Shown in pieces: positions 4,483-47,886 of a stretch of DNA of 64,000 nucleotides (position 1 is its first letter; each line of letters begins with the position of its first letter). Origin of the DNA: Candidatus Fervidifonticultor primus. GTDB taxonomy: Bacteria > Sysuimicrobiota > Sysuimicrobiia > Sysuimicrobiales > Humicultoraceae. The stretch covers positions 1,993,078 to 2,057,077 of the forward strand of contig JAVKHP010000001.1 of the NCBI GenBank assembly GCA_031459855.1, written 5' to 3'. The notes beneath the pieces were generated by a model. It ran no database searches. It saw only the letters and a list, made by a program, of their open reading frames with translations, and was not told the DNA's origin. Position numbers and translations under genes: made by a program.

Positions 4483-6000
4483 CTACGGCGTCACCGAGAC
4501 CTCCGAGAGCGTGAAGATCTCACTGGGCGGCAGCTTGAAGCCCTGGACGCGCGTGCGGTAGGCGTAGCTCTCCAGCGCCTCGAAGAGGAACACCGCCGGC
4601 CCGTCGGTCCAGAGGATCTCCTGCACCCGCCTGTACAGCTCGCACCGGCGGTCGAGGTCCACCGTGGCCGCGGCCTGTTCCAGCAGCCGGTCGACCTCCG
4701 GGTTGGCGTAGCCGGTGCGCCGCGCCCGCGAGTGGTACAGGCGCCCCAGCGTGTAGTCGGCGTCGCCGGTGACGGCACCGGTGCCCAGCAGGTTCAGGTC
4801 CCAGTTGAGCTTGAGCAGGTCGTCCAGCCAGATGGCCCGCGGCTGCAGCGTGTTCTTCACCCGGATCCCTACCAGGGCCAGCTGGCCCGTGATGGCATCG
4901 GCGACCTCGCGCTCCTTGGGCAGCGCGTCGTTCCACTTCAGTTCGGTCTCGAACCCCCCGGGGTAGCCCGCCTCGGCCAGCAGCTTGCGGGCCAGCGGCG
5001 TGTTGAAGCCATGGAGGGGGAACTCCACGGCGCACAGGACGTTGGCCGCGATCGGGCCCCGCGCCGGCTTGGCGATGCCCGCCAGCAACGAGCTGGTGAT
5101 GGCGGGGATGTTCAGGGCGTGTCGGAGGGCCTGCCGGACCTTGGGGTGGTCGAAGGGCTTGCGGGTCGGATTGATCCACAGGAAGCGTGTGTAGTAGGTG
5201 GGGCCGATCTCGATCTTGATCTGCGCGTTGCCGCGCAGGCGCTTGATCTCCTCCGGGGTGAGCTGGACGGTCATGTCGATCTCGCCGGTCTCCAGCGCCG
5301 TGACCCGCGCCGACAGCTCGGGGATGTCCACGAAGACCAGCCGCTGCAGTTTCGGGATCCCGCGCTGCCAGTAGGCGGGGTTGGCCTCCAGCACCACGCG
5401 CGTGTCGCGCACGAACTCCACGAACCGGAACGGCCCGGTGCCCACCGGCCGTTCGGCGAACGCCGGCGTGGGCGGCGTGCCAGCCGGCACGATGTAGAGC
5501 ATCGTCAGGTTGGACAGCAGCGTCCCCATGGGTCCTTGCGTCCGGATCACCACCCGGTAGGAGTCGGGGGTCTCCACCGCCGTCACCGGGGTGAACAGCG
5601 GGGTGAGGGGGCCGCGCAGGGCGACCACCCGCTCCAGCGACGTCTTCACCGCGGCGGCGGTGAACTCGCTGCCGTCGTGGAAGCGTACGCCGCGGCGCAG
5701 CTGGAACTCCCACGTGGTGGGATCGACGATCCGCCAGCGCTCGGCCAGCGCGGGCTGGAACTTCTTGGCCGCCGGGTCCCAGGTCACCAGGGTGTCGTAG
5801 AGGTGACGGCCGAGAATGATTGAGATGCGCTCAGCGGCGGCAGGGCCGTGGGCGTCGAGGGAGACCACCCGCTGGGGGTAGGCGATGCGCAGCGTCCCCG
5901 GCGGGGCCGCGGGACCAGCGGGCGCGCCGCCCGCAGCCGCCAGGATCACCACCACCACCAGGGCGACGGCACTGCGACCAGCGGTTACCAGGTTCACCAT
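4483..6000 (-). CDS. ABC transporter substrate-binding protein, family 5 (peptide/nickel)
   Basis: 505 aa with N-terminal signal-like hydrophobic stretch and ...LRRGVRFHDGSEFTAAAV... motif typical of OppA/DppA-type binding proteins. Confidence 0.9.
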   Translation of the reverse strand: MVNLVTAGRSAVALVVVVILAAAGGAPAGPAAPPGTLRIAYPQRVVSLDAHGPAAAERISIILGRHLYDTLVTWDPAAKKFQPALAERWRIVDPTTWEFQLRRGVRFHDGSEFTAAAVKTSLERVVALRGPLTPLFTPVTAVETPDSYRVVIRTQGPMGTLLSNLTMLYIVPAGTPPTPAFAERPVGTGPFRFVEFVRDTRVVLEANPAYWQRGIPKLQRLVFVDIPELSARVTALETGEIDMTVQLTPEEIKRLRGNAQIKIEIGPTYYTRFLWINPTRKPFDHPKVRQALRHALNIPAITSSLLAGIAKPARGPIAANVLCAVEFPLHGFNTPLARKLLAEAGYPGGFETELKWNDALPKEREVADAITGQLALVGIRVKNTLQPRAIWLDDLLKLNWDLNLLGTGAVTGDADYTLGRLYHSRARRTGYANPEVDRLLEQAAATVDLDRRCELYRRVQEILWTDGPAVFLFEALESYAYRTRVQGFKLPPSEIFTLSEVSVTP

Positions 6001-6045
6001 GCACCTCCGTGATCTGCGCTCGATGTCCGTAGTCCGCGCTCGATC

Positions 6046-6062
6046 GAGTCACCGCGTGACTC
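6046..6062. promoter_or_regulatory. Perfect inverted repeat GAGTCAC-CGC-GTGACTC upstream of the peptide ABC operon; candidate operator
   Basis: 7-bp arms with 3-bp spacer about 50 bp upstream of the binding-protein start; adjacent direct repeat GCGCTCGAT occurs twice (about 6015-6043). Confidence 0.3.
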
Positions 6063-6142
6063 CACGTTCATCGTACCCGCCGGCACCCGCGAGCGTCTAC
6101 CGGCAGGACGCGCGCAGCCGTCTTGGGAATCGCTGCCCCGCG

Positions 6143-6385
6143 ATGCAGTTGGGGCTGACGGCGGCGTTGTGCGCCGCCCGTCCCGGTCCGGACCTGCGCA
6201 CGCGGATCCTCCATGACACCTCAGCGGTCCTGTTCGGCGCGTGGTGCCCGGGGGACGTGCCGGTCGACGCGGTCCGGGCGCACGTCGCGGAGCTCACGCG
6301 GCTCGCCCGGCGCGAGTGGTCCGAGGCCGCCATCGAGGCGCCGGTGGTGCTGGAGGCGGCGCGGGCGGGGTCCCAGGATTGCTAG
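6143..6385 (+). CDS. Small hypothetical protein (80 aa)
   Basis: In-frame ATG inside track ORF 5885..6385; very high GC3 across the 80 codons; stop lies 17 nt before the GTPase start, suggesting co-transcription. Confidence 0.4.
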   Translation: MQLGLTAALCAARPGPDLRTRILHDTSAVLFGAWCPGDVPVDAVRAHVAELTRLARREWSEAAIEAPVVLEAARAGSQDC

Positions 6386-6401
6386 AATAGAGGCCGGTAC
6401 C

Positions 6402-7379
6402 ATGCCTGCGAACCTGACGCCAGAGTACCTGGCCGCCGACCGGAAGTTCAAAGAGGCCACCACGCTCCAGGCCAAGCTCGCGGCGCTGGAAGAGATGCTG
6501 GCGGTGATCCCCAAGCACAAGGGGACCGAGAAGATGCAGGCCGACCTCAAGCGCCGCATCGCCAAGCTGCGCCAGGAAGCCCAGCGCCGGCGCGGTGCCG
6601 CCCGGGCCCGACCCTTCTACCACGTCGACCGTGAGGGGGCCGGCCAGCTCGTCCTCGTGGGCGGGCCGAACGTCGGCAAGTCGTCGCTCCTGGCGGCGCT
6701 CACCAACGCCCAGCCCGAGATCGCCGACTACCCCTTCACGACACGGGTGCCGCTGGCCGGGATGACGGCGTTCGAGGACGTGCCGATCCAGCTGGTCGAT
6801 CTGCCGCCCGTGAGTCCCGAGATGACCGAGGGCTGGCTGTACGCGCTGATCCGCGGCGCCGACGGCGCGCTGGTGGTGGTCGACCTGGCCGACCCCGACC
6901 TGCTGTCGTCCACCGAGCAGGTGCTGGCGCTGCTGGCGGCTGGCGGCGTCGAGATTACACCGCCGGGGACACCGCGCGGCCCGCGGCAGACGCCAGGGCT
7001 GTTCGTCGCGGCCAAGCTCGACGCGCCCGGTGCCCGGGACGCTCTGGAGATCTTCAAGGAGTTCTACGCTGCCCGCCTGCCGGTGCTCCCTGTCTCCGCC
7101 CAGCAGGACGTGAACCTCGGCGAGCTGCGCCGCGAGATGTTCCGGCTGCTGGGCAAGATCCGGGTCTACAGCAAGAAGCCCGGCAAGAAGCCAGACCTCG
7201 ACGTGCCCTTCATCCTCCCGCAGGGGACCACCGTCCAGGAAGCGGCGGGCGCCGTCCACAAGGACTTCGCAGAACGCCTGCGCTACGCGCGCCTGTGGCG
7301 GGCCGGCGAGTACGACGGCCAGATGGTCGGCCGCGACCACGTGCTGCGCGACCGCGACATCCTCGAACTCCACATGTGA
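6402..7379 (+). CDS. DRG-like (Obg superfamily) GTPase with C-terminal TGS domain
   Basis: N-terminal helical region ...KHKGTEKMQADLKRRIAKLRQE..., P-loop GGPNVGKSSL, TGS-like C-terminus. G3 reads DLPP and G4 reads AKLD, both deviating from consensus. Start chosen at internal ATG 6402 (AGAGG upstream); track ORF begins at 6213. Confidence 0.75.
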   Translation: MPANLTPEYLAADRKFKEATTLQAKLAALEEMLAVIPKHKGTEKMQADLKRRIAKLRQEAQRRRGAARARPFYHVDREGAGQLVLVGGPNVGKSSLLAALTNAQPEIADYPFTTRVPLAGMTAFEDVPIQLVDLPPVSPEMTEGWLYALIRGADGALVVVDLADPDLLSSTEQVLALLAAGGVEITPPGTPRGPRQTPGLFVAAKLDAPGARDALEIFKEFYAARLPVLPVSAQQDVNLGELRREMFRLLGKIRVYSKKPGKKPDLDVPFILPQGTTVQEAAGAVHKDFAERLRYARLWRAGEYDGQMVGRDHVLRDRDILELHM

Positions 7380-7547
7380 GCGGCAGGATGCGCCGGCTCC
7401 CGGGCCAGCCGGCGATCCGCGGGCAGCCACCGGGGCGTTCCGTGCAGGGATGGCCACGGCCCCATGGCGCAGCCGGTTCGGAGGTTCCGCCGGGACACAC
7501 GGCCGGAGGCTGTCGCCGGTCACCGGCCGTTGAGCGTCGGGCCTGCT

Positions 7548-8186
7548 CTACCAGCGGAGCAGACCCCGCAGGAATGCCAGCAAGCTGACCAGCAGGCCGA
7601 CCGTCACCAGCAAGATGGCCAGCGAGGCGGCGGCCACCGCGAGCCCGGCCAGCAGGAAGAGCACGTCCCGGTTCAGCAGCGCCAGGCCCAGCAGCATCAC
7701 CGCCACGGCCGGGGGCGTGTTCAGGAAGGGGAACGGTCCCAGCAGGATCAGGCCCATGAGCAGCATCGCCGCCGCCACGATGCGCACGCCGACCCGCTCG
7801 CCCGGCCAGAACCCGCGCGGCCGTGACCAGCGCTCGAGCGCCCGGATCATCGGCAGGCCGCGGTCCCGGAGGAGCTGGACCGTCCGCGGCGAGAGCACAC
7901 GGTCCCGCAGGGCTGCGGGCAGCCAGGGCCGCCCGCTCCCCCGCAGCATCTGGATCGCGAACACCGCGTAGATGGGGCCGACCACCGTTGATGACCCCGG
8001 GGGCAGCACCGGGATCAGCATGGGCAGGCCCAGCACGAGCATCAACAGCCCAAAGCCCCGGTCGGCGGCTTGGTCGAGCAGGTCGCCCAGCCGCAGGGGG
8101 CGGTCACCGGCGTCGCGCAGCGCCGTCTCGAGGATCGCGGAGAGGGAGGGGATCTCGGGGTCCGTGGTCACGCGTGCGGCGGCCAC
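7548..8186 (-). CDS. ExoD-family membrane protein (exopolysaccharide synthesis-related)
   Basis: 212-aa hydrophobic protein with ExoD-like pattern (...GFGLLMLVLGLPMLIPVLPPGSS...); family assignment from memory of the motif. Confidence 0.55.
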   Translation of the reverse strand: MAAARVTTDPEIPSLSAILETALRDAGDRPLRLGDLLDQAADRGFGLLMLVLGLPMLIPVLPPGSSTVVGPIYAVFAIQMLRGSGRPWLPAALRDRVLSPRTVQLLRDRGLPMIRALERWSRPRGFWPGERVGVRIVAAAMLLMGLILLGPFPFLNTPPAVAVMLLGLALLNRDVLFLLAGLAVAAASLAILLVTVGLLVSLLAFLRGLLRW

Positions 8187-37139: not shown

Positions 37140-37201
37140 GCGGTGACAGCCGCATAGTGGTGGCGATGGAGCTCGCCAAGCGCCCGGGCGTGCGGGCTGA
37201 T

Positions 37202-37240
37202 AGCTCCTACTGACCGGCAGGTCGGTAGGAGCTTTTTGAT
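37202..37240 (+). terminator. Rho-independent terminator downstream of the FAD-oxidase gene
   Basis: AGCTCCTAC-T-GACC [GGCA] GGTC-G-GTAGGAGCT giving a 14-bp stem (one U-G wobble) followed by TTTTT. Confidence 0.7.
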
Positions 37241-41638: not shown

Positions 41639-42077
41639 GGGTACGCTCCTGTGGGGTAGCGGCACGCGACGGGCGGCCCCTACCCGCGGAATGTGGGTAG
41701 GAGCCATCAGCCCGAAGAGGGCGGTTCAGGCGGGCCCCATCGCCTGGGCTGGATTATAGGTGCTCCCGGGAGAGTGCGTCCAGTCCTCCTGGCCGCAGAG
41801 GCCATCCTCGTCGCAGGGGTCACCGGCATCCGGCCGTACCAGGCCCCGCGGCGACCGTAGCGGCGCATCACCCGCGCCACACCAGGTTGTTACCCAGGGC
41901 TGCAGAGCCGCTGGCAGTAGACTCTGCGCACCTCTCGCGTCCGTATTCGGGATGCTGCGGCGCGCGCATGACGCGGAAAGCGCTCTGGGGGAGAGGCGGT
42001 GTGCATCTTCTGGCCCGGGGGAGATGGCCCTGACCTTACGCCATCAAGTTAGATGGCGGATGGCGCGATTCGCGCGG

Positions 42078-47781: not shown

Positions 47782-47886
47782 CTCTTATCAAGAGTGGGTG
47801 AGGGACGGGCCCGATGACCCCCGGCAACCTGCCGCCGCCGCGGTAAGGTGCCAAGCCCCGCGGAACCCAGTTCCGGCGGATAAGAG
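47782..47886 (+). promoter_or_regulatory. SAM-I (S-box) riboswitch aptamer
   Basis: CTCTTATCAAGAG..GGGTGAGGGAC.GGCCCGATGA..CCCGGCAACC...GGTGCCAA..CCCGCGGAA...GGATAAGAG: P1 pairing and conserved S-box core elements; candidate promoter TTGACG-17-TAGTTT at about 47730-47758. Confidence 0.8.

Follow-up and report, generated by a model that had tools for sequence, protein, structure and literature searches.

DRG proteins, among them yeast Rbg1 and Rbg2, are conserved translation factors of unclear mechanism that the literature treats as absent from bacteria (reviews: PMC8629797, PMC4263083), and a 2026 preprint on Obg/Rbg phylogeny likewise treats Rbg as archaeal and eukaryotic (10.64898/2026.05.13.724932). 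They dock on the ribosome through three domains, an N-terminal helical hairpin (HTH), the G domain and, at the C-terminus, TGS; the S5D2L domain of Rbg1 touches the A-site tRNA (PMC8629797; PMC3510508). DRG1 is stimulated by K+ (PMC8629797), DFRPs are established in eukaryotes only (PMC8629797), and yeast Rbg1 without S5D2L keeps partial function and its association with polysomes (PMC3510508). Here we describe the gene of a DRG-like GTPase and the small open reading frame (ORF) in front of it, in a 64-kb window of the genome of Candidatus Fervidifonticultor primus (the whole stretch of 64,000 nucleotides (nt) that was analysed; G+C 72%), in whose numbering all positions are given. What is new here, as judged from the alignments below, is a bacterial, short-form branch of the DRG lineage that lacks S5D2L and reads DxPP at G3; a search of the literature on bacterial DRG/COG1163 found no study of this family.

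Architecture, G motifs and spread of the GTPase family

Three parts follow one another in the protein: a helical hairpin at the N-terminus, a G domain of the Obg type and, C-terminally, a TGS domain (Pfam: MMR_HSR1, 3e-16; TGS (PF02824), 9.3e-14; for coordinates see Table 1). A sequence search of the PDB returned yeast Rbg1 (3e-29) and Rbg2 (7e-29), followed by Obg (6e-15, G domain only) and YchF (3e-6), and the Rbg1/Rbg2 alignments took in the helical N-terminus as well as the TGS domain: HMMER aligned query residues 21-69 with the Rbg1/Rbg2 HTH ("QKNKATE...LKAKLAKLR"), and the TGS domain aligned with that of human DRG1 (2eki) and with those of Rbg1/2. An AlphaFold2 (AF2) model built from a 59-sequence alignment (mean predicted local distance difference test score (pLDDT) 87.5) contained N-terminal helices at residues 7-18, 22-35 and 43-69, a G domain resembling Ras and a C-terminal domain rich in beta-structure; Foldseek against the PDB placed Rbg1 (4a9a_A, 1e-20) first and Rbg2 next, with Nog1, HflX and YchF at ~1e-10. 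The closest characterised relatives are DRG, over Obg, YchF, Nog1 and HflX, and the label "DRG-like" is justified because the sequence and Foldseek rankings both put Rbg1/Rbg2 first. The DRG-type helical N-terminus and TGS domain of the original prediction were thereby borne out. The NCBIfam scan of the GTPase gave no model near its cut-off (best: ObgE, 68 bits against a cut-off of 406).

In canonical switch GTPases of the TRAFAC class, the amide of the Gly in the G3 motif DxxG bonds the gamma-phosphate. The GTPase described here has canonical G1, G2 and G5 motifs and a G4 that retains its Lys and Asp with Ala at the first position, and its G3 does not match DxxG. HMMER set its DLPP opposite DLPG of Rbg1/Rbg2 and its AAKLD opposite NKID; in the AF2 model D133 stands at the end of strand 127-133, and K205 and D207 lie just past strand 196-204. 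Because the pairings and the strand positions agree, we take the G3/G4 assignment to be correct. Readings of the DNA, HMMER and AF2 thus all returned the predicted G3 (DLPP) and G4 (AKLD), and the alignment, which would have revealed mis-assigned motifs, contained no canonical DxxG elsewhere in the right place. Two alternative G3 candidates were rejected by position: DREG precedes the P-loop, and DAPG lies just past G4 and is also not conserved. The prediction had further called the missing residue a catalytic Gly; its loss stands, but the adjective does not, as this Gly is a gamma-phosphate sensor and the hinge of switch II. Switch II itself is 5 residues shorter after G3 than in DRG/Obg, and the Obg-type Gly-rich segment is missing.

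Motif conservation was counted in an alignment of 374 distinct relatives. The G1 motif GxxNxGKS, including the P-loop Asn, occurs in 371 of them, the switch-I Thr114 in 373 and Pro135 (G3 position 3) in 371. Position 1 of G3 is Asp in 330 and Glu in 43, the Walker-B Asp/Glu being given as 100%. At G3 position 4 we counted Pro in 298, Ala in 53, Ser in 8 and Gly in 15, so that 359/374 carry Pro, Ala or Ser; 14 of the Gly cases read EVPG, the motif of the Thermococcus DRG cluster. By this alignment the replacement of the G3 Gly is an ancient, fixed trait of the family and no peculiarity of the window gene. The first position of G4 varies (Asn 187, Thr 94, Ala 65), alongside conserved Lys205 (337/374), Asp207 (358/374) and G5 Ser232 (352/374). 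A 98%-identical relative, at locus L001, carries the canonical TKLD where the window GTPase has AKLD, for which reason we regard AKLD as a near-neutral variant; the prediction was right in its reading of G4 and gave the departure from consensus too much weight, as the family uses N, T or A at this position. In the HTH motif, H39 and K40 are conserved in 371/374, and H39, K40, G41 and T42 are near-invariant.

Among the candidates scored, 5234 proteins matched at E ≤ 1e-5; at E ≤ 1e-30 the family comprised 563 clusters at 50% identity, and relatives are present in at least 493 species-representative genomes. For locus comparisons 80 loci were fetched, from Armatimonadota, Acidobacteriota (Terriglobia, Blastocatellia, Acidiferrales), Bacillota (Symbiobacterium, Fermentithermobacillaceae and others), Nitrospinota and Omnitrophota; cluster look-ups added the cultured Dictyoglomus thermophilum and D. 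turgidum, and Dehalococcoidia. As far as sequence assignments go, the G3-altered family spans several bacterial phyla and some archaea. Annotation pipelines label its members "ribosome-interacting GTPase 1", "TGS domain-containing protein" or "GTPase", and no specific curated model exists at present; a protein identical to the window GTPase (P0001) is annotated "GTPase [Armatimonadota bacterium]". As a side observation, the Terriglobia metagenome-assembled genome (MAG) Maj_2_bin.34 (contigs L045 and L061) holds two paralogous DxPP GTPases that are 68% identical, one with a ~20-aa (amino acid) insert before G5; the gene may be truly duplicated, or the bin may be mixed.

The relation to archaeal DRG was assessed from the region between G3 and G4. 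Nine representatives are long forms of 383-392 aa with ~125 residues between the two motifs, the spacing of archaeal DRG, whereas 60-70 residues separate the motifs in 310 of 375 aligned sequences. One long form, P0230 from Thermococcus (388 aa), bears the annotation "OBG GTPase family GTP-binding protein"; its whole length can be aligned with Rbg2 (4e-65), it shares 43% identity with the window GTPase, and by these alignments it is a bona fide archaeal DRG. Another comes from Bathyarchaeia. Identity between the window GTPase and archaeal DRG is ~37-44%. The Pfam model of the S5D2L region (PF16897) is complete in the long forms (profile 2-105, 1e-18 to 1e-21); in the window GTPase only profile positions 57-104 matched, at an E-value of 0.18, and the bacterial short forms in general matched only its second half or none of it. 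The S5D2L insert (~65 aa, between G3 and G4 in DRG) is, on these profile matches, absent from the bacterial form.

Three states could be told apart in the alignment, namely DxPG/ExPG combined with a Gly-rich switch II of the Obg type (in eukaryotes and Thermococcus), ExPA with that segment retained (in many archaea), and DxPP with the five-residue deletion of the Gly-rich segment (all bacterial forms and a few archaeal-looking ones). In a rough neighbour-joining tree of 139 representatives the S5D2L-bearing long forms clustered; because the branch below them is short (0.027) and two short forms fall within the group, we claim no direction of transfer. Two unusual cases were recorded besides. 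P0241 (L081, 5837-7015) is a 392-aa, S5D2L-bearing DRG with DTPP at G3 and without the Gly-rich switch II, on a contig that also carries an archaeosine-synthase-like DUF5591 gene, and a short form of 324 aa, P0228/P0350, is assigned to a Euryarchaeota MAG. Taken at face value, these sequences suggest that the G3 change and the loss of S5D2L have occurred in archaea too.

The gene, its upstream region and the small ORF

The start of the GTPase coding sequence (CDS) was fixed at 6402 because the N-terminus MPANLTP is invariant among close homologues. A longer mechanical ORF (6213-7379) was rejected as the CDS, being an artefact of an upstream stretch without stops; the homologues start with MPANLTP. 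With a divergent gene on one side and a convergent gene on the other, the GTPase gene is taken to be monocistronic here. Compared with L001, its CDS differs by 5/1/30 substitutions at codon positions 1/2/3, a pattern that shows the gene to be under purifying selection. No second copy of the GTPase was found within the window.

The original prediction had proposed the 80-codon, co-directional ORF upstream, rich in G+C at third codon positions (GC3), as a possible partner of the GTPase. The ORF exists as described (G+C by codon position 0.77/0.57/0.93), except that it stops 16 nt before the GTPase ATG and not 17 nt. It matched no Pfam and no NCBIfam model, and its translation matched the DNA of few relatives only. 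By tblastn it corresponds to residues 176-234 of a 238-aa protein at L011 (E 5e-14), whose Pfam B3_4 match covers residues 124-193, and with the last ~60 residues of the B3/4 proteins at L005, L007, L009, L010 and L011 it shares 45-61% identity. The full-length neighbours (220-240 aa) show a weak Pfam B3_4 (PF03483) match; the B3/4 domain also occurs in the beta subunit of PheRS. At L009 and L011 the B3/4 gene ends 10-20 nt before the GTPase, and at L005, L007 and L010 an opposite-strand SIMPL-family gene stands between the two. Both the window and L001 have lost the first ~170 codons of the B3/4 gene, and with them nearly all of the Pfam-matched core. No second B3/4 gene copy was found within the window.

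Between the window and L001 the ORF is 87.6% identical at the nucleotide level, compared with 96-97% for the flanking genes; its 5' 178 nt (6143-6320) are 81.5% identical and its last 65 nt 96.9%. The substitutions are spread over the codon positions (12/8/10), and two 1-nt deletions break the frame. Among the next relatives, the place of the ORF is taken by an unrelated spacer of 244 nt in L084 (GTPase 93% identical) and by a SIMPL gene in L082 and L083 (GTPase 92% identical); a B3/4 neighbour occurs at 5 of the 80 loci only, so the ORF-GTPase pair is not kept. Because the ORF lacks codon-position bias, carries frameshifts and is missing from the next three relatives, we read it as a decaying fragment and not as a partner. 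That it encodes a functional small protein working with the GTPase is very hard to credit: a coding-like GC3 of 0.93, the shared direction, the short gap and the full-length B3/4 genes that adjoin or lie near the GTPase in five more distant relatives speak for such a role, but no more than the final quarter of the parent gene is left, with almost none of the Pfam-matched core, and both the decay relative to L001 and the absence from L082-L084 go against it. High GC3 in a high-G+C genome is no proof of a live gene, and the value would fit a recently inactivated gene, in a genome of 72% G+C, whose composition has not yet relaxed. As a separate observation, positions 6201-6320 of the remnant are 75-80% identical to L001, below other intergenic DNA (84-89%); local recombination, or a hypermutability of this GC-rich DNA, may account for the excess divergence.

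Inspection of the upstream regions by eye and by regular expression revealed an extended -10-like element 13 nt before the GTPase ATG, in which the stop codon of the remnant (TAG) forms the start of the TAGAAT. The sequence TTGCTA[C/G]AAT recurs in 13 relatives (L001, L002, L005-L007, L010, L011, L019, L021, L032, L082-L084), equally far from the ATG and whatever the upstream gene, and in the Acidobacteriota loci L049, L054, L067, L068, L073 and L075 the end of a TATAAT lies ~7 nt upstream of the start codon. A strict sigma-70 scan (two hexamers, -35 required) and a terminator scan of 5900-7600 returned nothing. The conserved placement suggests that mRNAs of the GTPase family start from a promoter of their own and carry a very short leader or none, and the survival of the last ~65 nt of the remnant is probably due to the GTPase promoter within them.

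Conserved neighbours were sought in two passes, the first of which was swamped by high-GC shadow ORFs; in the second, GC3-filtered pass (74 loci), no neighbour was common to more than 12 of the 74 loci and none was conserved across phyla. With the best neighbour shared by at most 12/74 loci, the idea of an operon or partner for the GTPase was dropped. Two recurrent neighbours may be recorded. A gene of the mandelate racemase/muconate lactonising enzyme family (PF13378/PF02746) lies directly upstream of and co-directional with the GTPase at 10-12 loci (at position -1 in L015-L017, L019, L025, L027, L028, L036, L038, L039 and L047) and was the sole neighbour seen in more than one phylum (Armatimonadota-like and Terriglobia genomes). 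A ~440-490-aa protein without a Pfam match is conserved upstream of the GTPase in nine Armatimonadota loci (examples: L003, 2644-3972; L008; L012; L004; L010, 1129-2466), and the "...ITTGISGSGRL..." near its start might be a P-loop-like motif.

Table 1. Positions of the GTPase gene, its motifs and domains, and adjacent features in the window.
Feature	Position	Strand	Details
DRG-like GTPase CDS	6402-7379	+	325 aa plus stop; from ORF and homologue N-termini
N-terminal helical hairpin (HTH), aa 1-69	6402-6608	+	PKHKGTE motif; AF2 helices, Rbg1/Rbg2 alignment
G1/P-loop, GGPNVGKS (Asn90)	6660-6683	+	read from DNA
G2/switch I, YPFTT (Thr114)	6729-6743	+	read from DNA
G3/Walker B-switch II, D133-L-P-P136	6798-6809	+	Gly replaced by Pro136; read from DNA
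G4, A204-K-L-D207	7011-7022	+	read from DNA; HMMER alignment
G5, V-S-A	7092-7100	+	Ser232; comes after strand 228-230 in AF2 model
C-terminal TGS domain, aa 253-324	7158-7373	+	Pfam PF02824, 9.3e-14
80-codon ORF, read as non-functional 3' remnant of a B3/4-domain gene	6143-6385	+	B3/4 homology 6185-6361, possibly from ~6104
Extended -10-like element TGcTAGAAT, candidate GTPase promoter	6380-6388	+	comparison of upstream regions
Family-5 ABC solute-binding protein gene	4483-6000	-	PF00496; divergent from GTPase
ExoD-family membrane protein gene	7548-8186	-	PF06055; convergent with GTPase

Elsewhere in the window, a SAM riboswitch (47782-47886, +; 85.7 bits) and two fluoride riboswitches (41691-41753, -, 56.8 bits; 37153-37216, +, 37.9 bits) scored above the Rfam gathering scores, and the segment 42001-46000 has a G+C of 0.64-0.65 compared with 0.70-0.77 elsewhere; it may be horizontally acquired, or an RNA-gene or AT-rich segment.

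A possible mode of action and its rivals

On balance, though with clear reservations, we favour the joint reading that the locus holds a maintained, stand-alone, short-form GTPase of the DRG lineage that would sense GTP through switch I and dock on the ribosome, next to the decaying remnant of a B3/4 gene. Such a protein would still bind Mg-GTP. Its hydrolysis of GTP, which we expect from the conservation of the P-loop Asn and of the switch-I Thr, would probably be slow and K+-dependent: Ash et al. in 2012 reportedly named as hallmarks of K+-dependent GTPases an Asn at position 4 of the P-loop (GxxNxGKS) and a switch-I K-loop. The Asn corresponds to the family-wide Asn90, and switch I, the K-loop region, has a pLDDT below 50 in the AF2 model. 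A Pro at G3 position 4 would offer the gamma-phosphate no backbone NH, and the rigid Pro-Pro would stiffen the start of switch II; for both reasons the gamma-phosphate would be sensed via switch I only, and switch II would probably not act as a second "spring". By analogy with DRG, the protein would dock on the ribosome via its HTH, G and TGS domains. The altered nucleotide handling of the original prediction is a reasonable inference from the motifs.

Several points weigh against this. The functional claims, namely that the protein would bind and hydrolyse GTP, depend on K+ and bind the ribosome, are carried over from homologues, and no conserved gene neighbour in the GC3-filtered survey points to translation. 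Some family members are without the G4 Lys or Asp, and the guanine-binding constraint is thus perhaps not absolute. In Ras-like GTPases, mutation of the G3 Gly (e.g. Ras G60A) blocks the GTP-induced conformational change, and by that analogy a hydrolysis-dead or non-switching protein would be a serious alternative. The main rival, to which we give a distinctly smaller chance than to the favoured reading, holds that these proteins are functional pseudo-GTPases, which bind GTP or GDP constitutively without hydrolysis or switching and serve as a static, nucleotide-stabilised module for binding the ribosome or RNA. The family-wide loss of the gamma-phosphate-sensing Gly (359/374), its replacement by a rigid Pro-Pro, the deletion of the Gly-rich switch II and a sporadic degeneration of G4 in some members (THASS, TRPFD, HKSLE) are what it would lead one to expect; it is disfavoured because the near-invariance of the residues for catalysis, Mg and the gamma-phosphate (P-loop Asn, switch-I Thr and Walker-B Asp/Glu, with the counts given above) would be unexpected were hydrolysis irrelevant.

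A role away from the ribosome is a weaker contender still, and we think it improbable. Here the HTH and TGS domains would serve another RNA or small-ligand function (e.g. tRNA or (p)ppGpp sensing), having diverged after transfer into bacteria. The loss of S5D2L, the remodelled switch II and the want of translation-related conserved neighbours would fit such a divergence, as would the presence of Obg, YchF and HflX at the bacterial GTPase-associated centre already and the occurrence of TGS domains in RelA/SpoT and ThrRS (PMC8629797). The HTH motif and the TGS domain, which make ribosome contacts in Rbg1, are nevertheless the best-conserved parts outside the G domain, and the yeast Rbg1 without S5D2L cited above is partly functional and still found in polysomes (PMC3510508). 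Least persuasive for the GTPase itself is a shift of nucleotide specificity as in the sister family YchF/OLA1, an ATPase whose G4 reads NxxE, with AKLD as a mark of relaxed or changed base recognition. The variable first position of G4 (N/T/A/S and others), Ala in the window GTPase, and the YchF precedent inside the Obg family (PMC3583859) lend it some colour, but the guanine-specifying Asp207 is conserved, for which reason a change of base specificity is unlikely, Lys205 is largely kept, and the canonical TKLD of L001 makes the Ala near-neutral.

Returning to the favoured switch-I-sensing GTPase and to the permanently loaded alternative, we raise as a tentative possibility, ahead of the individual rivals yet well short of an expectation, that the family is a widespread prokaryotic branch of DRG working without the switch-II Gly, either as a one-switch, K+-activated ribosomal GTPase or as a permanently GTP-loaded factor. 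If true, it would present a naturally occurring exception to the "loaded-spring" rule, by which the switch-I Thr and the G3 Gly are both required, and DRG-type translation factors would not be confined to archaea and eukaryotes. The family allows a test of whether a TRAFAC GTPase cycles without the G3 Gly. As a minimal bacterial version of DRG (no S5D2L, no detected conserved partner, a natural DxPP switch II), its cultivable members in Dictyoglomus and Symbiobacterium would offer a simple thermostable system for asking what DRG ribosome binding and GTP turnover need.

Comparison with known GTPases

The window GTPase shares with DRG/Rbg the order HTH-G-TGS, the HTH motif K-x-K-[AG]-T-E, a hydrophobic residue after G3 (HAS-type) and the best sequence and fold matches. 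It differs in having no S5D2L, in DxPP for DxPG, in a switch II without the five-residue G-x-G-x-G segment, in a P-loop Asn where eukaryotic DRG has Ser, and in its bacterial host; no DFRP partner turned up in the neighbour survey, in which no search aimed at DFRP was made. RGK-family pseudoGTPases (DxWE) have also lost the G3 Gly and kept nucleotide binding; they belong to eukaryotic Ras-superfamily signalling and are unrelated in architecture and origin. With Obg/CgtA the window GTPase has in common the Obg family, the P-loop GxPNxGKS and a switch I of the YPFTT type, but it lacks the N-terminal Obg fold, and Obg has a canonical DxPG and a Gly-rich switch II. YchF/OLA1 is likewise of the Obg family, ends in a TGS domain and has by nature one G motif off the consensus (G4 NxxE in YchF), which changes how it handles nucleotides; it alters G4 and not G3, has an inserted coiled-coil domain and no HTH, and provides a precedent for motif drift with function kept.

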